A stretch of DNA of 33,169 nucleotides. Origin: a bacterium (GTDB taxonomy: Bacteria > Patescibacteriota > Minisyncoccia > Phycocordibacterales > UBA5272). Where the stretch lies: the NCBI GenBank assembly GCA_043751115.1, contig JAYVAE010000001.1:1-33169 (forward strand), given 5' to 3'. Made by a program: the position numbers and the translations under genes. Under the pieces are notes generated by a model that saw only the letters and a list, made by a program, of their open reading frames with translations, was not told where the DNA came from and made no database searches. Shown piece after piece: positions 1 through 30,307 of the stretch (position 1 is its first letter; every line of letters starts with the position of its first letter).

Positions 1-11
1 TTGTTCCCGTG

Positions 12-270
12 TTAGATCACTGGGGTATTTTTTAAGCATAGATTACTACGTAACCTTGATAGTAAAGGGGCTACTGTGCTTTTAGTGTAGTACTGGGTGT
101 GGAGAAAAGATAGTGGATGGGTTATAAGTCTCCTATATTCAAGTTTAATGAAAGCAATGAAGGAAGCGAAGATATGATTTCTTTGTGAGGTGGCACATGT
201 TGAGTAGTATTTTTCAATACCCGTTGTTTGCATGAATGTTGTGTGGTGAGAGTGTGCGTAGGTCCTAATT
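12..270 (-). pseudogene. Possible C-terminal remnant of a DDE transposase (IS4/IS701-like tail)
   Basis: The minus-strand frame reads ...HSHHTTFMQTTGIEKYYSTCATSQRNHIFASFIAFIKLE... This resembles the H-x3-K-x3-G-I-E-K ... Q-x-N-H tail of IS4/IS701-type transposases. No catalytic N-terminal part can exist because the SPFH gene ends at 274. Recognised by eye only. Confidence 0.25.
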
Positions 271-273
271 AAT

Positions 274-1035
274 TTATTTCTTATCTAAATGTGATGATAG
301 ACTTCTAATTCCTTCAAGCACCTCAACTGGCAAAGCAAAGATAACTGTTTTTGATGGGTCGCCATTTATTTTTTCTATTGTCTGCAAGGTTCTCATTGAA
401 AGACCGCCCGGAGTGGAACTAAGGATTTTAGCTGCTTGCGCTAAACGTTCGGAAGCTTGAAATTCTCCTTCGGCTCTAATAATGATTGCTCGTCGTTCTC
501 TTTCAGATTCAGCCTGCTTTGCCATAACGCGTTTCATATCAGCAGGCAATTCGATGTCCTGTATTTTTATGTCAGTAACTAATAAACCCCAAGATTGTGT
601 AGCGTTCACAACAATTTTCTGAATTGCTTCTGCTGTTTGTTCTCTTTCTGAAAGTAGCGAGTCAAGCTCAATTCCACCAATGACATCACGGAGAGCGGCT
701 TGAGCATATTGAGAAACGGCAAGTGTATAATCTTTAATATTCAAAATCGCGTTTTCTGCGGATGTTACTTGAAAATATACAACTGCATTGATACCTACAG
801 GAACATTATCTTTTGTAATAACTTCCTGTTGGGGGATATCGGTAGTAGTAATACGCATATCAATCTTTGTCATTTTCTGAAAAACAATAAGAATCCAAGT
901 TAATCCTGGTTGTCTTGTACTTGTATATTTTCCAAGCGTTAATACGACACCACGTTCATATTGATTAATGACTCTCAGACCAAATAGAATAATCAAAACC
1001 ACTATTACGAATAGCCCAATTAAAAGTATTTCCAT
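274..1035 (-). CDS. SPFH/band-7 (stomatin/prohibitin-like) membrane protein
   Basis: 253-aa ORF with an N-terminal TM helix (ILLIGLFVIVVLIILFGL). It continues RVINQYERGVVLTLGK... and ...IQDIELPADMKRVMAKQAESERERRAIIIRAEGE, typical of an SPFH domain plus coiled-coil tail. Confidence 0.9.
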   Translation of the reverse strand: MEILLIGLFVIVVLIILFGLRVINQYERGVVLTLGKYTSTRQPGLTWILIVFQKMTKIDMRITTTDIPQQEVITKDNVPVGINAVVYFQVTSAENAILNIKDYTLAVSQYAQAALRDVIGGIELDSLLSEREQTAEAIQKIVVNATQSWGLLVTDIKIQDIELPADMKRVMAKQAESERERRAIIIRAEGEFQASERLAQAAKILSSTPGGLSMRTLQTIEKINGDPSKTVIFALPVEVLEGIRSLSSHLDKK

Positions 1036-1235
1036 AGTTTTAGTATATCAGTACAAGTGTTGACAACACAATGGGACATCCCTGAATTCAACATTCTAAC
1101 GCAAGACCTGTACGTTCATAGAATACCTCATATGCGAGACTGTAAAACTCCTTGTGTAAAGGATGGGTTGTTCGTAATTACAAGTCTTAGAAAGCAAGAA
1201 ATTCATTGAAATATCGCTGTTTCTAGCTACTTTGC

Positions 1236-1264
1236 TTGACTTTTACAGTGAAATGTGCTATGAT
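1236..1264 (+). promoter_or_regulatory. Candidate sigma-70 promoter for the DGR target gene
   Basis: TTGACT (1236-1241), a 17-nt spacer, then TATGAT (1259-1264) preceded by TGC (extended -10-like). It sits about 170 nt upstream of the target gene start. Confidence 0.4.
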
Positions 1265-1293
1265 ACAAGGTAGTTCTTTGATATTCTAACTTG

Positions 1294-1351
1294 CATATGG
1301 TCATAGCGAAAAGTTGCTTACAAATAAGCCATTTCTCGCTATGACCATATG
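1294..1351. promoter_or_regulatory. Perfect 16-bp inverted repeat (26-nt spacer) in the target-gene leader
   Basis: CATATGGTCATAGCGA (1294-1309) is the exact reverse complement of TCGCTATGACCATATG (1336-1351). It lies between the candidate promoter and the RBS. Function is unknown (operator or RNA stem). Confidence 0.5.
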
Positions 1352-1432
1352 GTTAATAGTTCCTCCTCGGATTAGAGGATTTCATGTCTAGCAGACATGA
1401 ATCAATCGGCTATCAGCCGGAAGGAGTATTTC

Positions 1433-2050
1433 ATGGCCAAGTACAATCTCTACGTCGAAGACGTGAGTGTCGAGGCGATTTTCAACAAGCTCGGCGGAAT
1501 GGAAGGTGCTCGTCGCTTTCTGCGTGACGAACTGACGCTTTCCGAAGTCGTCCGTTCTTGGCGCGAAGAAGATGGCATCATCCGCTTCTCGGTCACGTCC
1601 GACGGCACCTCTGGTGCCAGCTGGATCGAATGCTTGGAACACGACGGTTACAACGTCGGCAGCTACGCCAAGCAAATCCTCCTGTCTCCCGACTTCAAGC
1701 CGACCAAGGGTGTCGTAACCGAGATCGTCGTCATGAAGGGCTCGCTCTTCTCGAATGACGAACGCATCACACGAAACATCCGTGCGGAAGCAACCAAGCG
1801 GAAGTACGTCGCTCCCAACCCCGAAGTCGCCTGTCTCATCCGTGTCATGTTCACCGACAAGGAGATTGAAGACATGGGTCTCTGGGGTATCGTCACGATG
1901 CACGAGCCCATCAAGGACTCCGATGGCGATCCGAGCTTGCTCTACGCGAGCCGTGACGACAAGGGTCGCTGGCTGTACGCGTATCACGTCAACCCTGCCT
2001 TCAGGTGGTTCGATGTCAACGGGTTCGCGTTTGCCGTTCTCGCAAGTTAG
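1433..2050 (+). CDS. DGR variable (target) protein; C-terminal 42 aa encoded by the VR
   Basis: The ORF runs 1397-2050. The ATG at 1433 has a strong SD (GGAAGGAG, 1419-1426, 6-nt spacer), so 1433 is preferred. The C-terminus DSDGDPSLLYASRDDKGRWLYAYHVNPAFRWFDVNGFAFAVLAS is encoded by the VR. The gene is markedly more GC-rich than its surroundings. No signal peptide or TM segment is visible. Confidence 0.85.
   Translation: MAKYNLYVEDVSVEAIFNKLGGMEGARRFLRDELTLSEVVRSWREEDGIIRFSVTSDGTSGASWIECLEHDGYNVGSYAKQILLSPDFKPTKGVVTEIVVMKGSLFSNDERITRNIRAEATKRKYVAPNPEVACLIRVMFTDKEIEDMGLWGIVTMHEPIKDSDGDPSLLYASRDDKGRWLYAYHVNPAFRWFDVNGFAFAVLAS
1919..2045 (+). repeat. DGR variable repeat (VR)
   Basis: 127-nt match to 2425-2551 (offset 506) with 13 differences. 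Twelve fall where the TR has A (VR positions 1935, 1950, 1955, 1976, 1985, 1989, 1998, 2000, 2001, 2009, 2010, 2016). One is a synonymous T/C at 1984. The last 29 nt are identical. Confidence 0.92.
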
Positions 2051-2112
2051 AACTTAGATTTTGGTCACTTTGGTCTCAATTAGCACTTGGACCCTTTGAC
2101 CTTAGTCCTTGT

Positions 2113-2148
2113 CCCGCACGGTACTCCGTGCGGGGCTTTTTCATTTTT
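2113..2148 (+). terminator. GC-rich hairpin plus T-tract downstream of the target gene
   Basis: CCCGCACGG (2113-2121), loop TACT, CCGTGCGGG (2126-2134), followed by GCTTTTTCATTTTT. This is intrinsic-terminator geometry. It may also act as a DGR target-site hairpin. Confidence 0.6.
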
Positions 2149-2424
2149 ATATTTTCGTAATGTTACAATTATGAGTGAGAGTAGGTGAATATGTGAGTGA
2201 TCACGGTTGATCGCTACCGAAATTAGTATCCATACATTCTGAGTATCTTAGATTACGGTTTAAGGTAGAGTGGTGTATGTGCAGATTTATTTACGTCCAA
2301 GATGTGAATCTGCTGATTCAAAAATGAAGATACTTGGTATAGAGTGCTAGGGCATTGTCATGCCGAATACGATACAACCTTAAGAGCATTCAAGGGGTGG
2401 TGGAATGGAAGGCACTCTATACAA

Positions 2425-2551
2425 TCCGATGGCGATCCGAACTTGCTCTACGCGAACCGTAACGACAAGGGTCGCTGGCTGAACGCGTACAACGACAACC
2501 CTGACAACAGGTGGAACGATGACAACGGGTTCGCGTTTGCCGTTCTCGCAA
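2425..2551 (+). repeat. DGR template repeat (TR), non-coding
   Basis: Adenine-rich counterpart of the VR. It contains 32 A by hand count, many within AAC/GAC triplets in the VR reading frame (...NLLYANRNDKGRWLNAYNDNPDNRWNDDNGF...). It lies between the target gene and avd/RT. Confidence 0.92.
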
Positions 2552-2564
2552 CTATCTCATTTCT

Positions 2565-2600
2565 AAAAGCCGATACATATCGGCTTTTAGTTTTTCTTTT
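2565..2600. terminator. Bidirectional hairpin terminator after the TR and after avd
   Basis: AAAAGCCGAT (2565-2574), loop ACAT, ATCGGCTTTT (2579-2588), then T-rich TAGTTTTTCTTTT. The A-tract on the other side serves the convergent avd, whose stop is at 2599-2601. Confidence 0.55.
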
Positions 2601-2934
2601 ACTTATGCTCTCTTGTTAGTTGTCCATGCCATCCACCAAGCATTCTACCTACTTCATCAAATGGCACAGAAATTGCAATGTACTTTTTGTCATCAATTGA
2701 TTTGCTCTCCCATAGTATGAGTAGCAACACTTTTGCGGTATCCATCTTTCGTATTGCAATACGCACATACGGATGCTTCTCATCTTTAGACAAAAAGCTG
2801 GCTTGGGCTATGGCTTCTATCGTTTCAATCAGAAGTTGATCAATTTTCTGGCCAAGTGTGTATCTATGATACTTGGGGAGTATTTGGTACAGCTGTATCC
2901 ACTCCATGTAGCCACTTTTTAGCTTTTCAAGCAC
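2599..2934 (-). CDS. avd: Avd-like accessory variability determinant (four-helix-bundle, 23S rRNA-IVS protein family)
   Basis: 111-aa ORF: ...WIQLYQILPKYHRYTLGQKIDQLLIETIEAIAQA...LLLILWESKSIDDKKY...EVGRMLGGW... This matches the Avd/four-helix-bundle pattern (P-K-x-x-R/K-Y-x-L-G-x-Q/K-I ... G-x-M-L-G-G-W). The start at 2934 is GTG; an alternative ATG is at 2907. It is on the strand opposite to the TR and RT. Confidence 0.8.
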   Translation of the reverse strand: MLEKLKSGYMEWIQLYQILPKYHRYTLGQKIDQLLIETIEAIAQASFLSKDEKHPYVRIAIRKMDTAKVLLLILWESKSIDDKKYIAISVPFDEVGRMLGGWHGQLTREHK

Positions 2935-2969
2935 TGGTAGTAATTGCGGGGGGGGGTAGACTTCACAGG

Positions 2970-3962
2970 ATGAGAATTACTTTTAATCATTCATATAATG
3001 ATACCATTTCAATCGAGAATTTACTCTTGGCATGGAAGGAATTTGAGAAGGGCAAAAAGTCACGTATCGATGTGCAGATATTTGAAAGGAATCTCATGAG
3101 TAATATCTTATCACTCCATCAAGATCTCGTTTCCAAAGTCTACAAGCATGGAGCGTATTTTGCCTTCAATATCTCTGACCCAAAGCCACGAAATATTCAC
3201 AAAGCATCCGTGCGTGACAGGCTACTTCATCACGCTATTTATCGTATCCTATACCCATTTTTCGACAAGACGTTTATTGCAGACTCATACTCATGCAGAG
3301 TAAAGAAATGAACACACAGAGCTCTCAGGAGATTTGAATATTTCGTAAGAAAGGTGTCGAAGAATCATACGAAGACGTGCTGGGTGCTCAAGTGTGATAT
3401 ACGAAAGTTCTTTGCTTCAATTGATCAGAAAATACTGCTTGATATTTTAGATGGTTATATTAGTGACAAGGATATTGTGCAATTACTCGCCACCGTCATC
3501 GAGAGCTTTCACTCCACAGATGTCGGCAAAGGTCTACCACTCGGTAATCTCACCTCACAACTCTTTGTGAATATTTACATGAATGAGTTTGATCAGTTTG
3601 TGAAGCACAGGCTGAAAGCGAAACACTATATACGCTATGCAGATGATTTTGTGGTTCTTTCGACTGATAGAAATGAGCTAGAAATGCTCCGTCAAAAGGT
3701 GGGAGACTTTTTGACGACGCGACTTCATCTCTCACTTCATCCAAACAAAGTATCCATCGAGACCTTTGCTTCAGGTATAGATTTCTTGGGATGGGTGCAT
3801 TTTCCAAAACACAGAGTACTGAGGACTGCGACCAAGAGAAAAATGATTGCAAGGGTGAGTGAGAAAAACGTCACATTATATCTTGGTCTACTCTCGCATG
3901 GAAATACGCATGAGCTGAGAGAAGAATTGAAAAAGTATTTGACTAATGTGTCAGGAGCCTAA
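2970..3962 (+). CDS. DGR reverse transcriptase, one reading frame interrupted by a single in-frame TGA (3309-3311)
   Basis: The ATG at 2970 opens MRITFNHSYNDTISIENLLLAWKEFEKGKK... The motifs SYSCRVKK*THRAL, VLKCDIRKFFASIDQ, LPLGNLTSQLFVNIYMNEFD (the DGR-clade signature as I recall it) and IRYADDFVVL (YxDD) are present. The two track ORFs (2856-3311 and 3354-3962) are in the same frame. Confidence 0.85.
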
Positions 3963-4014
3963 ATAACGCATACCACGCTTAGTGGGAGGGGTTGCGCATG
4001 CTACACTATTTCTC

Positions 4015-4944
4015 ATGAAAATGCTGAAAGTATTTGTTCCTTTTCTCTTCGTCACATCATTTCTCGTTTTTTATTATTTCCATATACAAAAGTACGGCGG
4101 GGGAATGATAGATCCAGCTGGCATTATCGCAGTAGCAGAGAAAAATCTCATGCTCACCGCCTTTGGTCTCATGATGATTGTGGTGGTGCCTGTCTTTATC
4201 ATGCTTTTTGCTTTTGCTTGGAGGTATAGAGCAGGGAATAAGCATGCGAAATATAGTCCAGACTTTCATGAGAGCAAAACTCTGGAAATAATTTGGTGGA
4301 TTGTGCCTGGTTTCATTGTTTTTCTGCTCGCTATTATCACTTGGAAAAGCACTCATGAGCTTGACCCTTATAAGCCACTAGTCAGTGATAAAAAGCCCAT
4401 TACAATACAAGTTGTTGCTCTCGACTGGAAGTGGCTCTTTATTTATCCCGATGAACAAATAGCAACAGTAAACCTTCTTCAAATTCCGAAAGATGTTCCT
4501 ATAAACTTTCGCATAACAGCAGACGCCCCTATGAATAGTTTTTGGATACCACAGCTTGGCGGGCAAGTATATGCTATGGGTGGCATGACGACACAGCTTC
4601 ACCTTATGGGAAGCAAAGAGGGTGATTACAAGGGCCTTTCAGCTAATTTTAGTGGAGACGGCTTTGGCGGTATGAAATTTATTGCTCGCGTAAGCTCAGT
4701 TTCTTCATATGAGGACTGGCTTAAAGAAGTAAGAAATTCCCCTTATGCGCTCACAGAGTCTGAATACGAAATGTTGAGGAAGCCTACAAGTTATGATGGT
4801 ATATCCTACTATGCCTTTTCTCAGCCTGGACTATTTCAAAAAATTGTTGATAGGTACATGCTTCCTGAAAACTCTTTTTCTCCAGATGGGACTCAGTATA
4901 AAGTGAAGTCTCACAGGCATGATAAACATGATAAATTGGAGTAA
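4015..4944 (+). CDS. cyoA: Cytochrome bo3-type ubiquinol oxidase subunit II
   Basis: LTAFGLMMIVVVPVFIMLFAFAWRYRAGNKHAKYSPDFHESKTLEIIWW... and ...MNSFWIPQLGGQVYAMGGMTTQLHLMG...GLSANFSGDGFGGMKF closely follow the CyoA pattern. No CuA Cys/His ligands are present, so it is a quinol oxidase type. The track ORF starts at GTG 3982; ATG 4015 is preferred. Confidence 0.88.
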   Translation: MKMLKVFVPFLFVTSFLVFYYFHIQKYGGGMIDPAGIIAVAEKNLMLTAFGLMMIVVVPVFIMLFAFAWRYRAGNKHAKYSPDFHESKTLEIIWWIVPGFIVFLLAIITWKSTHELDPYKPLVSDKKPITIQVVALDWKWLFIYPDEQIATVNLLQIPKDVPINFRITADAPMNSFWIPQLGGQVYAMGGMTTQLHLMGSKEGDYKGLSANFSGDGFGGMKFIARVSSVSSYEDWLKEVRNSPYALTESEYEMLRKPTSYDGISYYAFSQPGLFQKIVDRYMLPENSFSPDGTQYKVKSHRHDKHDKLE

Positions 4945-4965
4945 TACATAGTATACTTTCACCAT

Positions 4966-6939
4966 ATGTTTGGTAAATTAACTTTAGACGCATTTCCTAA
5001 CGATGTTATCGTGATTGTGGCATCACTTCTAATGGTTGTGGTGGCGTCGCTCGTAATCGGATTACTGTTTTATTTTAAAAAATGGAAATGGCTTTGGAAT
5101 GAGTGGATAACGACAGTCGATCACAAAAAGATTGGCATCATGTACATCTTACTCTCTACCGTTATGTTTATTCGAGGTTTTACGGACGCTATGCTCATGC
5201 GTACTCAGCAGGCAGTATCTGTGGGAGAGTCGTATGGATTTTTACCACCGGACCATTATGATCAGATATTTACGGCACACGGCGTTATCATGATTTTCTT
5301 TGTGGCAATGCCGCTCATGTTTGGACTCATCAACTTTGTGCTTCCATTACAAATTGGTGCGCGTGACGTTGCCTTCCCTTTTCTCAATTCTCTTTCGTTT
5401 TGGCTTACTTTTTTTGCTGCCATGCTGGTGAACGCTTCACTTGCTATCGGAGACTTCGCAGCGACAGGGTGGCTCGCATATCCGCCACTCTCTGGCATAC
5501 AGTTTAGTCCGGGAGTGGGAGTGGATTATTATATTTGGGCGCTACAAATTGGAGGTGTAGGAACACTTCTTTCTGCCATAAACTTTTTTGTGACAGTGCT
5601 CATGATGAGAGCGCCTGGAATGACCCTCATGCGTATGCCGGTATTTACCTGGACAAGTTTTTGCTCAATGATACTGGTTATCGTTTCTTTTCCAATATTA
5701 ACTGCGACGCTCTTCATGCTGTCCCTCGATAGATATTTTGGCATGCACTTCTTCACCATGGATGGCGGAGGTAACCCAATGATGTATATAAATCTCATAT
5801 GGGCATGGGGTCATCCAGAAGTATATATACTTATGCTTCCAGCTTTTGGTATTTTTTCAGAAATAGTTTCAACGTTTGCAAAGAAGAGGCTTTTTGGTTA
5901 CACAACGATGATATACGCCACGATTGCAATAACAGTGCTCTCTTTCCTTGTTTGGGTGCATCACTTCTTTACCATGGGATCAGGGGCGAGCGTGAATGCC
6001 TTCTTCGGTATTATGACAATGATTATCGCAATACCGACTGGAGTAAAGATATTTAACTGGCTCTTTACTATGTATAGAGGGCGTATTACTTTTGCGAGCC
6101 CCATGCTGTGGATGATCGGTTTTATCGCGACTTTTACTTTTGGTGGTATGACGGGAGTACTCCTGTCGCTTCCTGCTGTCGACTTTCAATTACATAATAG
6201 TTTATTTCTTGTCGCTCATTTCCATAATACGATTATTGGAGGAGTCCTCTTTGGATACTTTGCTGGGGTCGCTTATTGGTTTCCGAAGATATTTGGTTTT
6301 TCTCTTAACGAAAAGTTGGGGAAGCTTGCATTTTGGCACTGGATACTTGGGTTTTTTGTTGCGTTCACACCGCTTTACATACTTGGACTTCTCGGCATGA
6401 CACGAAGGCTTCAGCATATAGAAGGCGGAAATGGTTGGCAGACATTACTGATTATCTCGCTTTGTGGGGCTGTCATTATCGGCATCGGTATAGTGATACA
6501 GTTAGTACAGATAGTCGTGAGCTTTCTCCAAAGAAAAAAGAATCTGGACACAACGGGCGATCCATGGGATGGAAGGAATCTTGAGTGGTCAACATCTTCT
6601 CCTCCACCCCATTATAACTTTGCTCATATTCCTACTGTTTATGGACGTCAAGCATTTTGGGATATGAAATATGGTAATGAGTATCAAAACCTCCACCACC
6701 ACTTTGAAGATATAACAATGCCAAAAAATACTCCAGCAGGCTTCTTCATCGCAGGACTTAGCTTTGTACTCGGCTTTTCACTCGTGTGGCATATATGGTG
6801 GCTTGTCGTCATATCGTTTCTTGCAATACTCTTTGTTGTCATAATGCGCTCTTTCGAAGAAGATACTGAGTATATAATTCCGAAAGAAACTATTGCACTT
6901 CATGAGGCAAGTCGGCATCATTATCTTAAAGCACTATGA
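4966..6939 (+). CDS. cyoB: Cytochrome bo3-type ubiquinol oxidase subunit I (heme-copper oxidase)
   Basis: 657-aa polytopic protein with hallmark heme-copper motifs ([24 protein letters not shown]...). Its stop overlaps the cyoC start (ATGA). Confidence 0.93.
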
Positions 6940-7550
6940 AAGAAAACTTTAAAGAAAACATGATACAAAAGAAAGAGGGAGAAATAGAGAAAGGCGGGAG
7001 CAAAAGTATATTCGGAGTTTGGATATATTTAATGAGTGACTGTTTGCTATTTGCTAGTCTTTTTGCAACTTTTGTCATACTTCGCCACGCGACTAATGGC
7101 GGTCCATCTGGAGCAGAGATTTTTGACCTCCATTTTGTTTTCGCTGAAACAGTATTACTACTCGCGAGTAGTTTTACTCTTGGTATTGCAACTCTGTACG
7201 CCCATCATGAAGGTAGCAAAAAGAAAGCGCTCCGATTTATTGCTATTACTTTTATTTTGGGTCTTGCCTTCCTTTTCATGGAGACCTATGAATTTATGAA
7301 GCTGATAGGAGAAGGTCATGGACCTGACAAAAGCGCTTTCCTCTCCGCTTTCTTTACACTTCTTGGAGTGCATGGGCTACATGTACTTTTTGGACTAGTG
7401 TGGATGGCAGTGCTGTACATACAAATCGCGAAGAGGGGCCTCCAGCATGCTCTCATTGACCGTCTCTCTGCGCTTTCTCTTTTCTGGCATTTTATTGATA
7501 TCATTTGGATATTTATATTTACCATTGTCTATTTAATGGCTTTTGTATAA
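6936..7550 (+). CDS. cyoC: Cytochrome o ubiquinol oxidase subunit III
   Basis: 204-aa membrane protein (...[18 protein letters not shown]) immediately after cyoB in the canonical operon position. Confidence 0.85.
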
Positions 7551-7556
7551 TTTTTT

Positions 7557-7934
7557 ATGATAAAAACATTTGAAGTATTAGATGAAAATTTTGAAAGCTC
7601 AAAGAGAGCCTTCACATCGTATGTTGTTGGTTTCTTACTGTCACTCGCTCTCTCCTTTATGTCCTTTTTTATTATTGTAAAAGGGATTGTCTCTTCCTAT
7701 CTTGCACTTTTAACCATTATCATTCTTGGTGTTATTCAGCTCCTTGTTCAGGTTTTCTTTTTCCTACACCTCCCCATTAAAAGGAAGCCATATTGGAATG
7801 TGCTGGTGTTTTTCTTCACGCTTATCATTGTGTCTTTCCTTGTCATTGGTTCTTTGTGGATTATGTATCATCTTAATATGAATATGATGGGAATGCCCCC
7901 TTTCAATTCAAATGAGGGTCGTATACCACAGTAA
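7557..7934 (+). CDS. cyoD: Cytochrome o ubiquinol oxidase subunit IV
   Basis: 125-aa three-TM protein in the cyoD position (YVVGFLLSLALSFMSFF..., VQVFFFLHL). Confidence 0.75.
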   Translation: MIKTFEVLDENFESSKRAFTSYVVGFLLSLALSFMSFFIIVKGIVSSYLALLTIIILGVIQLLVQVFFFLHLPIKRKPYWNVLVFFFTLIIVSFLVIGSLWIMYHLNMNMMGMPPFNSNEGRIPQ

Positions 7935-7936
7935 AT

Positions 7937-8815
7937 ATGAAGAGGTGTAGAGAGTACTTTAAGCTTACCAAACCGGGTATTATTTACGGTAATGCCCTTA
8001 CACTCGTCGCTGGCTTCATGCTCGCGTCACACAATGCTCAAACCACTTTAGAGCAGGTAGAGTTCATCCTTTTACTTGCAACACTCATCGGTCTTTCTTT
8101 AGTGATAGCGGCGGGCTGTGTTTTTAATAATTATTTTGATAGAGATATTGACGCCCTTATGGAGAGGACGAGGAAGCGAGCGCTCGTTACTGGCGTGATA
8201 TCACCAAAAAATGCTCTCATTTTTGGCTACGCTCTTTTTACCCTAGGAGTGCTCATATTATATTTTTTTACAAACACACTCGCTTTCATTTTATCGCTTG
8301 TTGGTTTTTTTGTGTATGTCTTCTGGTATACAATGGCGCTCAAAAGACATTCAACGCACAGCACTCTTTTGGGGGGTATCGCAGGAGCTATGCCCCCGGT
8401 GGTTGGATACGTTTCTGTACTAGGAGCTATTGATGCAGGAGCAGTACTCCTTTTTCTCTTACTCACTATTTGGCAAATGCCTCACTCTTTTGGCATAGCT
8501 CTGTATCGACTAAGTGATTATAAAAAAGCAAATGTACCCGTACTTCCACTTCGAAAAGGCATTCTCGCCACAAAAATTCAAATTGGAGTCTACATCTTTC
8601 TCTTTTTAATTATAGCTACTTCATTTTATTTTTTTAAGCTTGCTCACGAAGTTTATATAGTAATTATTTCTCTACTCTCACTGTGGTGGCTTGCTCTCTC
8701 CCTAAAAGGTTTTCGTTTAAAGGAGGGGGAAGAAAAAATGTGGGCAAAATCTATCTTTAAATTCTCAATTATTATTTTGTCGGTGTTTTGCTTCCTTCTT
8801 ATTCTTGGCCTGTAA
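7937..8815 (+). CDS. cyoE: Protoheme IX farnesyltransferase (heme O synthase)
   Basis: UbiA-family polytopic protein with NNYFDRDIDALMERTRKRAL (the Asp-rich prenyltransferase motif). It is the last gene of the cyo operon. Confidence 0.88.
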   Translation: MKRCREYFKLTKPGIIYGNALTLVAGFMLASHNAQTTLEQVEFILLLATLIGLSLVIAAGCVFNNYFDRDIDALMERTRKRALVTGVISPKNALIFGYALFTLGVLILYFFTNTLAFILSLVGFFVYVFWYTMALKRHSTHSTLLGGIAGAMPPVVGYVSVLGAIDAGAVLLFLLLTIWQMPHSFGIALYRLSDYKKANVPVLPLRKGILATKIQIGVYIFLFLIIATSFYFFKLAHEVYIVIISLLSLWWLALSLKGFRLKEGEEKMWAKSIFKFSIIILSVFCFLLILGL

Positions 8816-8876
8816 GAATAGCGATCAATTTTTTATTCCTACAGATTTTATTTTACTTTTATAGTAGTATGGCGTA

Positions 8877-10142
8877 ATGAATATAGATGAAGAAAAGCTC
8901 TATGATGTTATTGTGATTGGCGGCGGAGCGTCCGGTATGATGGCGGCCGCGCGTGCTGGCGCTCGTGGACTCTCCGTACTTTTACTTGAGAAAAACAAGA
9001 GACTTGGAGAAAAGCTCCGCATTTCAGGAGGGGGAAGATGTAATATTTTAAATGTCGAAGAAGACGAAAGGGTACTTCTTGCTAAATATGGTGACGCAGA
9101 AAAATTTCTCTATAGTCTCTTTGCAAAGTTTGGAATGAAAGACACTTTTTCTTATTTTGAAGAGAAAGGACTACCGCTTCATGTTGAAGGATTAAAGAGA
9201 GCTTTTCCGAAAAGTAATAAGGCGGAAGATGTGGTAAATCTTCTTGAGGAAGAATTAAAAAAGGACAAGGTAGAGATAAAGCGTGCCGTCACCATTAAAA
9301 ACTTAGAGGTTAAAGACGGAGCTATACTCTTTGTGCAAGCAGGAGATATAAAGTATTATGCAAAAGAATACATACTCGCCACAGGAGGACTTTCTCACAA
9401 AGAGACGGGCTCAACAGGTGATGGCTTTTTATGGCTTTCAAAGCTTGGTCACAATGTGGTCAGTCCTACACCAGAACTTGTGCCACTCGTATCATGTTCA
9501 GCATGGGTTAAAGCTCTATCAGGAACCTCACTTTCTGATACCGCAGTTAGTTTCTATGTCGATGACAAGAAAGCATTTACCGTAAAAGGAAGAGTTCTTT
9601 TCACCCACTTCGGACTCTCAGGGCCACTTATTTTAAATAACTCTGGAAAAGTGGCAGACCTTTTACATACAGGTATGGTCACTGCCAGGATAGATCTTTT
9701 TTATAAAGTCGACCATGGCACTCTTGATAAACTGGTAGTAGACATTTTTGATCAGAATAAAAATAAAGAGCTCAAAAACATTTTGAAAGAGTTACTGCCC
9801 GAGGGCATGAGTAAGGGAGTTTCCCTTCTCTTGGCAGAGTTTTTTGATATTGAGAAAAAAGTGCATTCCATTTTAAAAGAAGAAAGAAAAGAGCTGGTAC
9901 ATCTCTTAAAAAGTATGCCGGCAACTATCGAGGGACTAATGGGTTTTGACAAAGCAATTGTTGCAGATGGCGGTACTCCGCCTGAGGAGATAGATTTTAA
10001 GACTATGAGATCAAAGAAATGCCTTAATCTTTTTGTAACGGGGGACCTCCTTCACATAAATCGTCCTTCAGGTGGGTACTCTCTACAGCTTTGCTGGTCT
10101 ACCGGCTATGTGGCAGGGTCTTCTGTTGGAGAAATATCTTAG
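8877..10142 (+). CDS. NAD(P)/FAD-dependent oxidoreductase, HI0933/BaiN-like flavoprotein
   Basis: YDVIVIGGGASGMMAAARAGARGLSVLLLEKNKRLGEKLRISGGGRCN is the family N-terminal dinucleotide-binding signature. The length (421 aa) fits. Confidence 0.85.
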   Translation: MNIDEEKLYDVIVIGGGASGMMAAARAGARGLSVLLLEKNKRLGEKLRISGGGRCNILNVEEDERVLLAKYGDAEKFLYSLFAKFGMKDTFSYFEEKGLPLHVEGLKRAFPKSNKAEDVVNLLEEELKKDKVEIKRAVTIKNLEVKDGAILFVQAGDIKYYAKEYILATGGLSHKETGSTGDGFLWLSKLGHNVVSPTPELVPLVSCSAWVKALSGTSLSDTAVSFYVDDKKAFTVKGRVLFTHFGLSGPLILNNSGKVADLLHTGMVTARIDLFYKVDHGTLDKLVVDIFDQNKNKELKNILKELLPEGMSKGVSLLLAEFFDIEKKVHSILKEERKELVHLLKSMPATIEGLMGFDKAIVADGGTPPEEIDFKTMRSKKCLNLFVTGDLLHINRPSGGYSLQLCWSTGYVAGSSVGEIS

Positions 10143-10150
10143 TTTTGCTT

Positions 10151-10759
10151 TTAGTTTTTCTTGAAAAGTCCGATCGTGTTATATCTGTAGCGTATATTTT
10201 TTTCTAAATGAAAAGTTCTCGCATAATGGACGAGTATGTCTTTCTCTGCTCCGACATTAATAAAAATCTCCCCATCCGCTTCCAGAATCACCTTAAGAGC
10301 GTTCAGAAAATCTGTAGTGATTAGTCTTGGCTCTACTGTACCGCCCGTGAAAAGATCTATGACAATAAGATCATAACGAGTAGGCAAGTCTACTATTTTC
10401 TCCACAGCGTCTCCGATAAGCATGACTACACCTTCAGTCTTGAAAAGTTTAAGATGCTTTATGACTTCGGTCATTGTCTCGTCCCATTCGATTGCGGTAA
10501 TTATTGAACCAGTATATCTTTTCTGAAGCAATCCGATGACATTTCCGGCACCAAGTCCGAGAACGAGAATAGCAGGGCTAGGTTTTATAAGAACGCTGAA
10601 GAAAAAAACTTCTTTCCACATAGAGGCAATATAGGTTCCCGCGCTTCCAGATTGTTGTACATGATCGATAGTCAGCCGTGTCATGCCGAGTAGTGTTTCA
10701 ATCCGAACTGCCTTATTTTTTTGTGACACGAAGTTAACTTTTTCGTAAAAAAATTTCAT
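10151..10759 (-). CDS. Spermidine-synthase-like class I SAM-dependent methyltransferase-fold protein
   Basis: ILVLGLGAGNVIGLL (G-x-G-x-G), ...AIEWDETM..., ...YDLIVIDLFTG. This is Rossmann-fold MTase / spermine-spermidine synthase-like organisation. Confidence 0.6.
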   Translation of the reverse strand: MKFFYEKVNFVSQKNKAVRIETLLGMTRLTIDHVQQSGSAGTYIASMWKEVFFFSVLIKPSPAILVLGLGAGNVIGLLQKRYTGSIITAIEWDETMTEVIKHLKLFKTEGVVMLIGDAVEKIVDLPTRYDLIVIDLFTGGTVEPRLITTDFLNALKVILEADGEIFINVGAEKDILVHYARTFHLEKNIRYRYNTIGLFKKN

Positions 10760-10864
10760 AGTTTAGGGAGATTAACAGGAGTATAGCAAGTTAAAAGATA
10801 AGGAAAAAGATTTTTAAAGAATGTATTTCCTTATGCTATAATCGTCCTAATTGCCTTTAACTTT

Positions 10865-12220
10865 ATGAGACATATTCTTATTATTATTCTTTTTGCTCTG
10901 ACACTTCTTTTGGCTGGAACCTCTTCATATTATTACTTGCCAAATAGTAGAGAGTTTTCCGCATATAACCTCGATCTTGATGGCATAGTAAATGATACTA
11001 GTACAAATAAACTGTCCTATGGTCCAAGTCCAAGTTTATCAAATGCTGATTTTTTCGAGGAAGTAAAAAAGAAATTTATTGATACCGGCGAGAACTTTAT
11101 TGAGGCAGATCTTTCCAAGATGAAACTTACTGTGTATCAAGCGGGGGTCCCCGTGAAGGAAGTAACAATACTGACGAAAGGAAAAGAGGGTCTTTGGTGG
11201 CAAACGCCTGCTGGACTTTACAAAATTGAGAGTAAGGCAAAATCACATTTCTCATCATTCGGGCAAGTCTATCAACCCTTTAGCATGGCCTTTCAAGGCA
11301 ATTTCTTTATACATGGTTGGCCACATTACAAGGATGGAAAAAAGGTTGCGACACAGTTTTCGGGTGGTTGTATAAGGCTTTCTGATGAAGATGCTGAGGT
11401 AGTGTATAACCTCGCCACTATTGGCTACCCGGTACTTGTTTTTGAGAAGGGATTTATTCCAGATGGTTTTACGTACGAGACAAAGCCACTCAAGCTTACT
11501 GCAGAAAGTTATTTAGCAGCCGACCTTAAAAATAATTTTTTGTTTACGAGCAAAGAGGCGACCACGACAAGATCTGTGGCTTCACTTACGAAACTCGTTA
11601 CTGCCCTTGTAGCTTCTGAATATATCAACTTAGATAAAGGCGTTATTATTAAGGAGAGCAGTCTGGCAACCACCTCTATAAAAAGGCTGAAAGTCGGAGA
11701 GTCTGTCTCTGCCTACTCACTACTTTTTCCCCTTTTAGAAGAGTCATCAAATGAGGCTGGAGAGGCTCTTGCGTCGGTGCTCGGGAGAGGTTACTTTATT
11801 TCACTCATGAATAAAAAAGCTAAAGCTATCGGTATGACGGATACAACTTTTACTGATCCATCGGGCAGGGAGTCTTACAATGTCTCTACACCAGAAGACA
11901 TGTTTCTTCTTGCGAAGTATATTTATTTAAACAGAAGATTTATTTTTAATATAACTTCTGAGCGTGTAGAAGGGTCAGCTTACGAGAATACTTTCACAGA
12001 TCTTCAAAATTTTAATTTGTACAAAGGTGACCCAGAGTTCGTCGGAGGGAAAACAGGTAAATCAACCAGCGCAAAGGAAGCGTATGTAGGTGTTTTTGAG
12101 ATGGAGTTTAAGGGTGAGGTGAGACCTATAGTTATCGTGATGCTTGGGTCTTTGGATATAAAAGAAGATGTGGAGAAAATGCGAAAACACATAAAAGAGA
12201 CATATAAAGAGACACCATGA
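10865..12220 (+). CDS. Fusion protein: L,D-transpeptidase (YkuD) domain + serine DD-carboxypeptidase (peptidase S11/PBP5-like) domain
   Basis: It has an N-terminal signal/anchor. The YkuD catalytic motif is HGWPH...SGGCIRLSDEDAEVVY. The penicillin-binding motifs follow: S-L-T-K (VASLTKLV), S-S-N (ESSNEA) and K-T-G (GGKTGKS). Confidence 0.85.
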   Translation: MRHILIIILFALTLLLAGTSSYYYLPNSREFSAYNLDLDGIVNDTSTNKLSYGPSPSLSNADFFEEVKKKFIDTGENFIEADLSKMKLTVYQAGVPVKEVTILTKGKEGLWWQTPAGLYKIESKAKSHFSSFGQVYQPFSMAFQGNFFIHGWPHYKDGKKVATQFSGGCIRLSDEDAEVVYNLATIGYPVLVFEKGFIPDGFTYETKPLKLTAESYLAADLKNNFLFTSKEATTTRSVASLTKLVTALVASEYINLDKGVIIKESSLATTSIKRLKVGESVSAYSLLFPLLEESSNEAGEALASVLGRGYFISLMNKKAKAIGMTDTTFTDPSGRESYNVSTPEDMFLLAKYIYLNRRFIFNITSERVEGSAYENTFTDLQNFNLYKGDPEFVGGKTGKSTSAKEAYVGVFEMEFKGEVRPIVIVMLGSLDIKEDVEKMRKHIKETYKETP

Positions 12221-12966
12221 AAACTGATGTAGCTCACAAGGAACAGATAGTTATTTCACAATTGCATAAGACATACAAGAATGCAAAGAAAGAGACGCTC
12301 AGTGGCATAAATCTCGCCATAAAAAAAGGAGAATTTATTGGACTGCTCGGTCCCAATGGCGCAGGTAAAACTACTCTCATCAACTGCCTTACTGGGGTCA
12401 CGAGTCAGACGAGCGGGAAGGTTACTCTCTTTGGTATGGATACGATAAAAGAGTATAGAGAGGCAAGAAAACTTGTTGGAGTGTCGCCACAAGAATTTAA
12501 TATAGACATTTTTGATAATGTTGACAACATCCTTGACTATCAAGCAGGGTATTTTGGAATTGTTGGTAAAGAGATGAAAAAAAGAAGAGAAGAGCTTATC
12601 TCACAGTTTGAGCTACAAGAACATAGAGAGAAACGTTTTCAATTTCTCTCCGGCGGACTTAAGCGACGCGTTGTTTTAGCGAAGGCGCTCATGCATGACC
12701 CAGAAATCCTCATACTTGATGAGCCAACCGCAGGGGTAGACGTAGAGACGAGGCAGACACTGTGGACTTACTTACAAGAGCTTCATAAAAAAGGGAAAAC
12801 TATCATATTGACGTCCCATTACTTAGAAGAAGTGCAAATGCTCTGTACCCGCGTAGCGATGATTAAAGATGGAAAAATCGTCCTTGATGGAGACATGAAA
12901 GAGACCACAAAAAATAAAACACTCGAAGCAATCTACTTAGAAAAAGTGGGTAAACAAAATATATGA
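12217..12966 (+). CDS. ABC transporter ATP-binding protein (ABC-2 exporter type)
   Basis: Walker A GPNGAGKTT, signature LSGGLKRR, Walker B ILILDEP. The start overlaps the upstream stop (ATGA). Confidence 0.9.
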   Translation: MKTDVAHKEQIVISQLHKTYKNAKKETLSGINLAIKKGEFIGLLGPNGAGKTTLINCLTGVTSQTSGKVTLFGMDTIKEYREARKLVGVSPQEFNIDIFDNVDNILDYQAGYFGIVGKEMKKRREELISQFELQEHREKRFQFLSGGLKRRVVLAKALMHDPEILILDEPTAGVDVETRQTLWTYLQELHKKGKTIILTSHYLEEVQMLCTRVAMIKDGKIVLDGDMKETTKNKTLEAIYLEKVGKQNI

Positions 12967-13733
12967 TATATAACTGGACTGGATTTTTTACGCTTATACG
13001 ACGTGAACTTGGGAGGGCAAGAAGAGTTATTGGTCAAGCACTTATCGCCCCACTTGTGACGGCAGTGCTCTATATTTTTGTTTTCGGCTATGTTGTTGGA
13101 AGTAAAATAGAGATAATAGAAGGGATAAAGTATATTAGCTTCGTATTCCCCGGTATCTTTGCAATGAATCTCATCATGGCAGTCTTCTCGGCGACATCAG
13201 CTTCTATATACTTCATGAAATTTCAGAGGACTATAGAGGACATGCTCACACTTCCGCTTTCCTATGTAGAAATAGTCGCATCTCTGCTTGTTTCTGGACT
13301 CGTGAGGGCTTTTGCTATCACAGTAGCCCTTTCTTTCGTCGCTATTATGTTTGGCATCAATACTCTCGCCCACCCATTTTATCTACTACTTTTTGTTTTA
13401 CTGATTAGCATTCTTTTTGGGCTACTCGGCATCATTGCTGGCATATGGGCGGATAATAGTTTTGAAAAATTTGGTATTATTACCAACTTTATTCTGACAC
13501 CGCTTACTTTTCTAGGTGGCGCATTCTACTCAGTGAATATGCTACCAGAGAAATTTATATTTCTCATCCACGCAAACCCTGTTTTTTATGCGGTAGACAG
13601 CCTCCGTTTCGCCCTTACGGGGTATCATGAAAGTAATTTAGCTGTGTCGGTTGCTGTGCTTGGAGGGCTTTCTCTTCTTGCCCTCGCAACCTGCATCTAT
13701 ATATTCAAAACAGGGTGGAAACTTAGGTCGTAA
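12963..13733 (+). CDS. ABC-2 type transporter permease
   Basis: 256-aa six-TM-like protein translationally coupled (ATGA overlap) to the ATPase. Confidence 0.8.
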   Translation: MIYNWTGFFTLIRRELGRARRVIGQALIAPLVTAVLYIFVFGYVVGSKIEIIEGIKYISFVFPGIFAMNLIMAVFSATSASIYFMKFQRTIEDMLTLPLSYVEIVASLLVSGLVRAFAITVALSFVAIMFGINTLAHPFYLLLFVLLISILFGLLGIIAGIWADNSFEKFGIITNFILTPLTFLGGAFYSVNMLPEKFIFLIHANPVFYAVDSLRFALTGYHESNLAVSVAVLGGLSLLALATCIYIFKTGWKLRS

Positions 13734-14085
13734 TAGAGGTTAAGCGAAGCTTTCGTACATTTTAGGCTTAATAGACATTAATGGTGCTTAGCACCCAAGT
13801 ATCTCTTTTACAACTTTTATCCTTCTTTCCGTTGTTAATCCTCTGTGCACATTCACCATCATTTTTAATACACTAAAGTATCCGTCGAGGGGTCACTAAA
13901 TCAAAAGAATCAAATTTTCTGTTGATAATGCACGAACATATTTTTGTGTTTCAGAAATAATTATGAAGGTGTTTTCAATAATCTAACACAACTAACTCCG
14001 AGAAGACCGTAACTGGATATCTCCAGTGATGAAAAAGTGCATTCGGGCGCTTTTTTCTTTTCCTTAAAAATGTTAGTCTTTTAAC

Positions 14086-14664
14086 ATGTTTAAGATACCG
14101 TCAGCTCTTACAGCTCTTAGCAAAGAACAAAAAATAGTTACCTATTTTCTCCTCTTCTCTCTGCTTCTTTATGGTGTACTTTTCTTTACCTCTTCTTACG
14201 TTACTAAGCCCGTAGCAGAAGTCAAAAAAAGTATCATTGTGCCGACCAAAGACACCCCTCTGTACGATATGAAAGGTGAGGCAACACAAGAAAAAACTCG
14301 AAGCACTTTGAATTATTCTCTTAAATTTCCCTCCACCCTAATAAGAGAGGTTAAAAATGAGGGTGAATCTGTTTTATTCTATTATGATGGGGCCGTCGTC
14401 GCTAAACTTACTTTTGTGTATGAAGGAAAGAATGGATTAAGTAAAGAAAAGTATGTTAGAGATGTACTCGGGCAAAGGCTCCCTCTTGCCATAGAGTCTG
14501 GATTAACAACCTTTGGTAAATATGATTATATGACTGCGGCAGCAGAAAACTCTTACTTTAGGGTTTCTTCTTTCAAAAAGGGGGAGTGGCTCGGAGCTCT
14601 TGAAATACTTCCAGAAAATCAGGAGGTAGAGAAAATTATTCTTGGCAGTCTTGAAATAAAGTAA
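14086..14664 (+). CDS. Hypothetical N-terminally anchored protein
   Basis: 192-aa ORF with one TM helix (IVTYFLLFSLLLYGVLFF). I recognise no family. Confidence 0.5.
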   Translation: MFKIPSALTALSKEQKIVTYFLLFSLLLYGVLFFTSSYVTKPVAEVKKSIIVPTKDTPLYDMKGEATQEKTRSTLNYSLKFPSTLIREVKNEGESVLFYYDGAVVAKLTFVYEGKNGLSKEKYVRDVLGQRLPLAIESGLTTFGKYDYMTAAAENSYFRVSSFKKGEWLGALEILPENQEVEKIILGSLEIK

Positions 14665-29663: not shown

Positions 29664-29737
29664 TGGGGAATCGTCTAATGGTAGGACACATCCCTCTGGA
29701 GGATGGTATTGGGGTTCGAGTCCCTGTTCCCCAGCCA
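29664..29737 (+). tRNA. tRNA-Gln (anticodon CUG), CCA encoded
   Basis: Hand-folded cloverleaf. The acceptor TGGGGAA pairs with TTCCCCA, and the D arm CGTC pairs with GGAC. The anticodon stem CATCC/GGATG carries loop CT-CTG-GA. The T arm is TGGGG-TTCGAGT-CCCTG, the discriminator is G, and CCA follows. Confidence 0.85.
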
Positions 29738-29742
29738 AGTTT

Positions 29743-29868
29743 CAGAATTCGTTTTTTCGCCAAAATTCGGAGCGTCGCAAAGCGACGCGACGGGGGTTTC
29801 CGCCAGAATTCGCCAAGGGTTTTTGAAATCCAAAAGAAGCGAGCGGGACGCGAGACGGGGGTTCGAGC
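29743..29868 (+). repeat. Two degenerate tandem units (about 61-65 nt) next to the tRNA 3' end, each ending in a T-arm-like GACGGGGGTT motif
   Basis: CAGAATTCG starts each unit (29743 and 29804). ACGCGA(G)ACGGGGGTT recurs near each unit end. The second reads GGGGGTTCGAGCC, like a tRNA T arm. The units could be decayed tRNA or att fragments. Confidence 0.45.
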
Positions 29869-29971
29869 CAATCTTTTTAAGAAAATCTCTTTTAGCTTCG
29901 AGATTTTCTTCGGAAGCGATAATTAAGGCTTGGTTACTGTCTAAAATGAATTGTTTAGAAAATAATTATAA

Positions 29972-30307
29972 TCAACTCTCTGTACTACGCCTGGGGCAAA
30001 AAAACGTAACGGCTCTATTAAGCTGGCTGGTACCAAAGCAACAACTCCACCCGAACGGACGAACTACCGGCTTCAACCAGAGTCTTGAATCTGCTACATC
30101 GCTAGGTCCTTCAGGAGTGCGGTAGTGATAGGGATGAACAAAACTCGGGAGAAAAGCCAAGACGGCATCGGCTACGCTTGCGACATCCATTGTGTACGGG
30201 AGATTCATCGGGATTAAGGCGTGGTCAATACCGGTAAGCGCTCGCATTTCGAGAATATCAGCGCTATCGCCAGCTATGTGAATCTTTGTTTCCCATAGTG
30301 TAACGAA
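29972..30307 (-). pseudogene. Possible C-terminal fragment of a HAD-superfamily hydrolase
   Basis: The minus frame, bounded upstream by TAA, reads FVTLWETKIHIAGDSADILEMRALTGIDHALIPMN... This resembles HAD motif IV (GDxxNDxxM...aG). No N-terminal DxD motif region is present. Confidence 0.3.

Follow-up and report, generated by a model that had tools for sequence, protein, structure and literature searches.

Organization of the DGR cassette

The window, i.e. the whole stretch of 33,169 nt that was analysed, carries at positions 1397–3962 a complete DGR cassette composed of a target gene with its variable region (VR), a template repeat (TR), a divergently oriented avd gene (accessory variability determinant) and a gene for a DGR reverse transcriptase (RT). 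The target gene (1397–2050, + strand) is an ORF for a variable protein of 217 aa, for which a Pfam search returned no match. The VR (1919–2045, + strand, 127 nt) is located at the 3′ end of this coding sequence, ends 5 nt before the stop codon and represents the C-terminal end of the protein, i.e. the last 44 codons. The TR (2425–2551, + strand) is likewise 127 nt long, contains 32 adenines and reads as AAC-rich codons in the frame of the target gene. The VR differs from it by 13 mismatches, and a second VR partner for the TR was not found in the window. A strong terminator-like hairpin with 11 pairs, nine of which are G-C, follows the target gene (2111–2136, + strand), and a second terminator-like hairpin with 12 pairs and a subsequent T run (2563–2590, + strand) is situated between the TR and the 3′ end of avd. 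Public gene calls of the locus and of its sister contigs contain an antisense ORF (1388–1987, − strand) of 199 or 207 aa in place of the target ORF; the target protein is missing from the protein collection because these gene calls choose the antisense ORF over the target gene on the + strand.

The avd gene (2599–2934, − strand) encodes 111 aa when read from the GTG at 2934, although this start is uncertain. Its product matches the Pfam family bAvd (PF22296) with an E-value of 3.8e-9 and 37.4 bits, slightly under the 40-bit cut-off. A 122-aa version of the protein in a precomputed gene call is likewise listed as bAvd, and the avd homologues residing beside the RT gene in four other contigs (L001, L002, L084 and L088) are recorded as PF22296 bAvd, too. 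An Avd-like accessory protein adjoining the RT is one of the features by which a DGR is recognized.

The RT gene (2970–3962, + strand) comprises 330 codons and is interrupted by an in-frame stop codon; as argued below, it is very probably a pseudogene in the strain of the window. When a glycine is put at the position of the stop, the protein matches Pfam RVT_1 (E = 3e-24), and its best match among solved structures is the Bordetella phage BPP-1 RT, bRT (PDB 8ub7, E = 3.4e-44), with homology extending over residues 14–294. Downstream of the stop, the LTSQL sequence (residues 194–198) and the catalytic YADD motif (3636–3647, + strand, residues 223–226) are intact. The RVT_1 match, the YxDD motif and the 'SQ' dipeptide in motif 4, the latter being a criterion for DGR RTs (PMC3521204), place the enzyme in the DGR clade of RTs. 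Comparison with the BPP-1 system reveals that both share the R-x-x-K-G-T-H element, LTSQLF with the DGR 'SQ' signature and YxDD in the RT, an Avd-like protein and an adenine-specific TR/VR pair. The two differ in that avd of the window is transcribed divergently between TR and RT, in that the cassette is chromosomal, in an uncultured Patescibacteria bacterium, instead of residing in a phage, and in that the window strain has a stop codon at the glycine equivalent to that of 'DKG' in bRT. As is typical of a DGR, the mismatches between TR and VR fall on adenines of the TR (12 of 13 in the window and 13 of 13 in a sister strain, see below). An uninterrupted RT frame, which an active DGR needs, is lacking in the window. 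By ancestry and anatomy the cassette is a DGR, yet probably an inactive one.

The in-frame TGA and the intact allele of a sister strain

Translation of 2970–3962 yields one frame of 330 codons whose sole internal stop (SYSCRVKK-stop-THRAL) is the TGA at 3309–3311 (+ strand), without any frameshift. An earlier note on this DNA had described the two RT fragments as halves of one frame separated by this TGA, which the translation confirms, and had placed a conserved glycine at this position. In the alignment with bRT (8ub7), the stop is placed on the G of 'ACRPDKGTH' with LTSQLF and YADD aligned downstream, and it coincides with the glycine of the R-x-x-K-G-T-H element (Gly114). The 26 closest homologues all have a glycine in column 114, as do 119 of a set of 120 homologues. 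Related genomic loci (n = 83, from GTDB species genomes and other assemblies, with L001 and L004 being the same contig) contain 84 full-length matches, in which the residue is a glycine in 83 cases and an alanine in one. The codons used at this position are GGA (44), GGG (19), GGC (10), GGT (10) and GCA (1), and not one of the 84 matches has TGA there. In three of the closest relatives, compared at the DNA level, the codons are AAA GGA ACA, as opposed to AAA TGA ACA in the window, and the remaining 12 glycine codons of the window RT are all GGN. The conserved glycine of the earlier note was hence correctly placed, and also correct were its statements that a single substitution leads from GGA to TGA and that the catalytic motifs downstream of the stop are preserved. 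A scan of JGI metagenomes with a 35-nt region around the codon, in which the variable base was given as N, produced 0 matches. Restart or translational coupling at the ATG overlapping the stop (A-ATG-A, 3308) was considered and dismissed, as inspection by eye showed that this ATG opens only a 9-codon out-of-frame ORF.

The earlier note had suggested examining orthologous cassettes in relatives, and this comparison was decisive for the direction of the change. Searching for exact copies of the cyoC product, we identified a 31.6-kb contig of a sister strain (L088; ENA ERZ28573545, SAMN19433712), which aligns to window positions 1220–14550 with 99.7% identity over 13.3 kb, including 36 mismatches and two one-base gaps. 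The chromosomal context of both cassettes is the same, with avd, TR and the cyo neighbours in common; avd shows 0 differences between the strains and the TR is identical. At codon 114, L088 possesses GGA, with a G at the position of T3309 in the window, and its RT is intact with 330 aa. Since GGA is present in the same context of a nearly identical strain, the TGA arose in place via a G>T transversion.

Outside the cassette, synteny with L088 (positions 1–1284 of that contig) breaks upstream of the target gene at window positions 1–1220. Beyond the break, the window carries an SPFH/Band-7 gene (274–1035, − strand) and L088 a Fic-domain gene. Just inside the region common to both strains, two arms of 27 nt (1294–1320 and 1325–1351) form a palindrome. 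Strain differences are few outside the VR and the RT; one of them is found at position 2135, a G in the window versus an A in L088, in the 3′ arm of the hairpin at 2111–2136.

A single-base difference in a metagenome-assembled contig could in principle result from a sequencing or assembly error, the true sequence being GGA. We regard such an error as extremely unlikely, given how the two alleles are distributed. The TGA allele, giving rise to split products of 113 aa and 192 aa, is present in two contigs, namely the 33,169-nt NCBI contig and the Logan contig L084 (SRR23617151). The latter was built independently and has 0 mismatches to the window over 7,974 nt, with one extra G in a homopolymer as the sole deviation; it is possible that both assemblies go back to one sequencing run or one set of reads. 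The intact RT product is found in four to five contigs from NCBI and ENA, of which four have one antisense-ORF product in common and may be re-assemblies of the same data. Moreover, the TGA belongs to a haplotype with further specific differences in the RT, cyoA, cyoB and the VR, and no other interrupted gene was detected in the 33-kb window. The occurrence of TGA in two assemblies and of GGA in four to five contigs together with the linked haplotype differences argues for a real polymorphism and against an assembler artefact. In the protein collection, the 192-aa RT fragment is the representative of a 90%-identity cluster of which the intact allele is a member, and among the cluster representatives shown the best match has 88% identity.

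Genetic code of the host and signals for recoding

The relatives of the window strain are Patescibacteria MAGs, many of them labelled Saccharibacteria, and the host is an uncultured, Saccharibacteria-like Patescibacteria bacterium. The cyoABCDE operon adjoining the RT is in keeping with this group. We inspected 26 host genes of the window, which contain 8,843 codons including 614 glycine codons, all of them GGN, and 0 internal TGA codons. These genes terminate with TAA (13), TAG (9) or TGA (4), three of the four TGA stops being ATGA overlaps with the start of the next gene. The claim that host genes use TGA as a stop and lack it internally is borne out by these counts. Since internal TGA codons are missing, TGA serves as a terminator and the relatives belong to the taxa named above, we conclude that the host uses the standard code. 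A tRNA-Gly with the anticodon UCA is not encoded in the window, the sole tRNA there being a tRNA-Gln(CTG), and prfB is absent from the 33-kb window as well. The tRNA-Gln(CTG) gene (29664–29737) and a listed ORF of 140 aa (29703–30125) overlap at the start of the latter, which for this reason is probably not a gene.

These data bear directly on the proposal that the RT stems from, or is expressed in, a background with UGA as a glycine codon (code 25), such as Gracilibacteria, Absconditabacteria or their phages, in which case the TGA would be a sense codon for glycine. The stop is placed exactly on the conserved glycine, and code-25 lineages belong to the superphylum of the host. The position of the TGA is, however, the single trait that the locus shares with code 25. 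Neither in-frame TGA codons at glycine positions across many genes nor a lack of TGA terminators, both hallmarks of this code, were observed among the 26 host genes, 4 of which end in TGA. The relatives and the sister strain encode the residue by GGN, the latter by GGA in the same gene and at the same chromosomal site, and the 0 of 84 count for TGA at this position as well as the GGN usage at the other 12 RT glycines and at all 614 host glycines likewise contradict a sense UGA. This evidence refutes the proposal that the RT originates from a UGA = Gly background or a phage, and we assign it virtually no probability. In practical terms, an in-frame TGA on a conserved glycine in Patescibacteria should be checked against neighbouring genes and sister strains before code 25 is called.

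A different role for the stop codon had been envisaged in the earlier note by suggesting leaky read-through of the UGA or programmed recoding, through which little full-length RT would be made and diversification throttled instead of abolished. UGA is generally the leakiest stop codon, and UGA followed by an A, as present here, terminates translation rather weakly in E. coli. The rest of the RT ORF is devoid of stops and frameshifts, and a 106-nt segment comprising the stop and its downstream sequence shows a somewhat stronger fold than shuffled sequences (z = −2.4). The same pairing potential is, however, apparent in relatives that carry GGA, with one compensatory pair out of 22 and almost no covariation, and the folding potential therefore reflects conserved coding sequence. 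Searching the whole window against Rfam at gathering thresholds identified the tRNA-Gln and no SECIS or recoding element, and a search of positions 2000–4100 with E-values up to 5 returned nothing relevant. A conserved RNA element 3′ of the UGA, as expected for selenocysteine insertion or programmed recoding, was thus not found. The UGA itself is conserved neither in any of the 84 matches nor in L088, and the plain GGA of the sister strain argues against conserved recoding. Near-cognate read-through of UGA would normally insert tryptophan and not glycine, at a column with glycine in nearly all homologues. In addition, the TGA lineage has lost the near-invariant S303 and has gained a non-adenine mutation in the VR (see below). 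Read-through or recoding as the explanation of the TGA is, on these grounds, very unlikely. The weak UGA-A context may permit trace read-through and with it traces of full-length RT. That such low-level read-through strongly slows the DGR and thereby maintains a 'throttle' allele beside a full-activity allele in the population is, in our estimate, very improbable indeed.

Derived changes and probable inactivation of the RT

The RT alleles of the window and L088 differ at six nucleotides (+ strand), five of which affect the amino acid sequence. These are K26E at 3045 (AAG>GAG), with a lysine in the 13 closest homologues and in L088; N112K at 3305 (AAC>AAG), two codons before the stop; the G114stop at 3309 (GGA>TGA); E184D at 3521 (GAG>GAT); and S303L at 3877 (TCA>TTA), in a column that is serine in 119 of 120 homologues. 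The sixth difference, at 3959, is synonymous. L088 exhibits the state of the closest homologues at all five replacement sites, so the changes are derived in the lineage of the window (5 to 0, one-sided P = 0.03). A share of five non-synonymous changes out of six is not expected under the long-term dN/dS of the family of about 0.09 (P = 0.004) and is compatible with neutral evolution. The substitution density of the RT in the TGA lineage is nine times as high as in the flanking sequence taken as a whole (P = 6e-5), whereas the excess over the adjacent cyoA/cyoB segment (3963–5369) is not significant (P = 0.15), nor do RT and flanks differ significantly in their ratio of non-synonymous to synonymous changes (Fisher P = 0.55). 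The extra RT changes are few (four replacements) and lie inside a locally more divergent tract: 11 strain differences are clustered within the 2.3 kb of 3045–5369, which comprise the RT, cyoA and the start of cyoB, compared to two within the 9.2 kb of 5370–14550. Judged from the alignment, this clustering suggests a recombination tract covering the RT.

Measured against more distant relatives, the window RT is inconspicuous. It deviates at two conserved columns compared to a mean of 1.8 for the other RTs, and its pairwise dN/dS to relatives at 86–88% identity is 0.08–0.10, equal to that of intact genes, both tests being insensitive. The lack of any excess in either measure points to an inactivation that is young in comparison to species divergence, yet not entirely new.

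The VR provides a second record of the history of the cassette. Among the 13 mismatches between VR and TR in the window, 12 are located at TR adenines and one at a TR cytosine (VR T1984 versus TR C2490), the latter resulting in a synonymous TAC>TAT change. The C>T change at 1984 is derived, because VR and TR of the sister strain both have a C. In L088, VR and TR likewise differ at 13 positions, all 13 at adenines. The clean adenine-specific difference between VR and TR that had been reported for the window therefore applies to all mismatches but the one at the cytosine, and a non-adenine change of this type is one that a working DGR would overwrite. The VRs of both strains differ from each other at 19 positions, 18 of which are adenine sites, so homing took place after the strain split in at least one lineage.

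We consider it very probable, by comparison of the available sequences, that the locus harbors a recently pseudogenised DGR RT, in which a G>T mutation knocked out the codon for Gly114, and that the TGA is an ordinary inactivating mutation and not an oddity of the genetic code. A single transversion turned the codon of the near-invariant Gly114 from GGA into TGA, and under the standard code translation ends after 113 residues, before motifs 3–7 and YADD. A product of this length would not be a functional RT; mutagenic retrohoming would cease, and the VR would be frozen in the TGA strain. The G>T mutation and its polarity, the intact allele in a near-identical strain and the additional derived changes in RT and VR are directly observed. 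The four RT replacements and the non-adenine VR change suggest decay in the TGA lineage. An objection to an inactivation of the DGR is that another RT, encoded at a different place in the genome, might act in trans. Of the options raised in the earlier note, an inactivating nonsense mutation is the one supported by the intact, GGA-encoded RT of L088 and the extra derived changes; its description as 'very recent' needs to be qualified, since the TGA allele is old enough to have acquired further changes in RT and VR.

Two further nonsense alleles were found among the 83 related loci, each with one stop codon at an invariant residue and an otherwise intact RT. In L027 (about 82–1053), TCA>TAA affects S108 within 'SY-stop-CR', and in L060 (4001–4957), CAG>TAG affects Q197 within 'LTS-stop-L'. 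The single-stop alleles including that of the window make use of all three stop codons, which argues against a UGA-specific cause. Within the Patescibacteria DGR family as sampled here, single-stop RT alleles are not rare.

The recurrence of such alleles raises the question of whether the nonsense allele is selected, since loss of the RT might lock a useful VR variant or remove the cost of a mutagenic enzyme and in this way act as an adaptive off-switch at the population level. This idea refines the pseudogene explanation and is not exclusive of it. The two near-identical strains, which differ in their RT states and at the 19 VR positions, coexist in related samples; three RTs, when the window is counted with the 83 loci, each have one nonsense codon, which hits an invariant residue of an otherwise intact frame; and the nine-fold RT substitution density in the TGA lineage would also be in line with selection. 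About three nonsense RTs in 84, however, lie inside ordinary bacterial pseudogene rates, and the disappearance of the density excess against 3963–5369 is better explained by a recombination tract than by targeted selection. We hold selection for the nonsense allele to be rather unlikely.

Relation to other truncated DGRs and to the Patescibacteria RT clade

Pseudogenisation of the RT agrees with what has been described for other DGRs. Schillinger et al. (2012, BMC Genomics 13:430; PMC3521204) reported DGR RTs truncated by nonsense mutations, frameshifts or insertion-sequence events, the VR/TR pairs of which still differed at adenines only, which the authors interpreted as recent inactivation. 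In Ruminococcus gnavus ATCC 29149, for instance, the DGR RT is inactivated by a nonsense mutation (PMC3521204). DGRs of this type resemble that of the window in the premature RT stop, in the retention of TR, VR and accessory gene, and in VR/TR mismatches that are located (almost) exclusively at adenines. They differ from it in that the window has a near-isogenic intact strain, which fixes the polarity of the mutation and reveals additional decay changes, i.e. S303L and the non-adenine change in the VR. A nonsense-truncated DGR RT beside a still-clean VR/TR pair is a situation known since 2012, and the case is accordingly of little weight for biology at large. Its use lies in the near-isogenic pair itself, with an intact versus a nonsense RT, identical TR and avd, and different VRs, which offers a ready on/off control, provided by nature, when DGR activity is to be measured from metagenomic reads.

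DGR RTs of the CPR (Patescibacteria) reportedly form a common cluster (PMC11661182). The closest homologues of the window RT, found in MAGs labelled Saccharibacteria, Paceibacterota, Azambacteria and similar, have 63–88% identity and share the avd-RT arrangement, and the window RT differs from this clade in the stop codon only. The contig L001, which carries the DGR of the closest GTDB relative, contains a second, partial RT-like match (12339–12665) with 50% identity to residues 188–298, about 5 kb downstream of its DGR RT.

A further feature of the family resides in the 35-nt gap between the divergent starts of avd and RT, in which the window possesses a poly-G tract of nine G (2946–2954, + strand). 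We know of no description of such a tract at this spot in the family. The homopolymer, which is conserved and variable in length, could be a phase-variation tract or else a conserved RNA or promoter element. The tract comprises 10 G in contigs L084 and L088, and a G-run of at least eight (8–14) is present within 100 nt upstream of the RT start in 66 of the 84 family matches, usually about 20–30 nt upstream of the start. Among these 66, the run is 8 G long in 13 cases, 9 in 17, 10 in 22, 11 in 12, and 13 and 14 in one case each.
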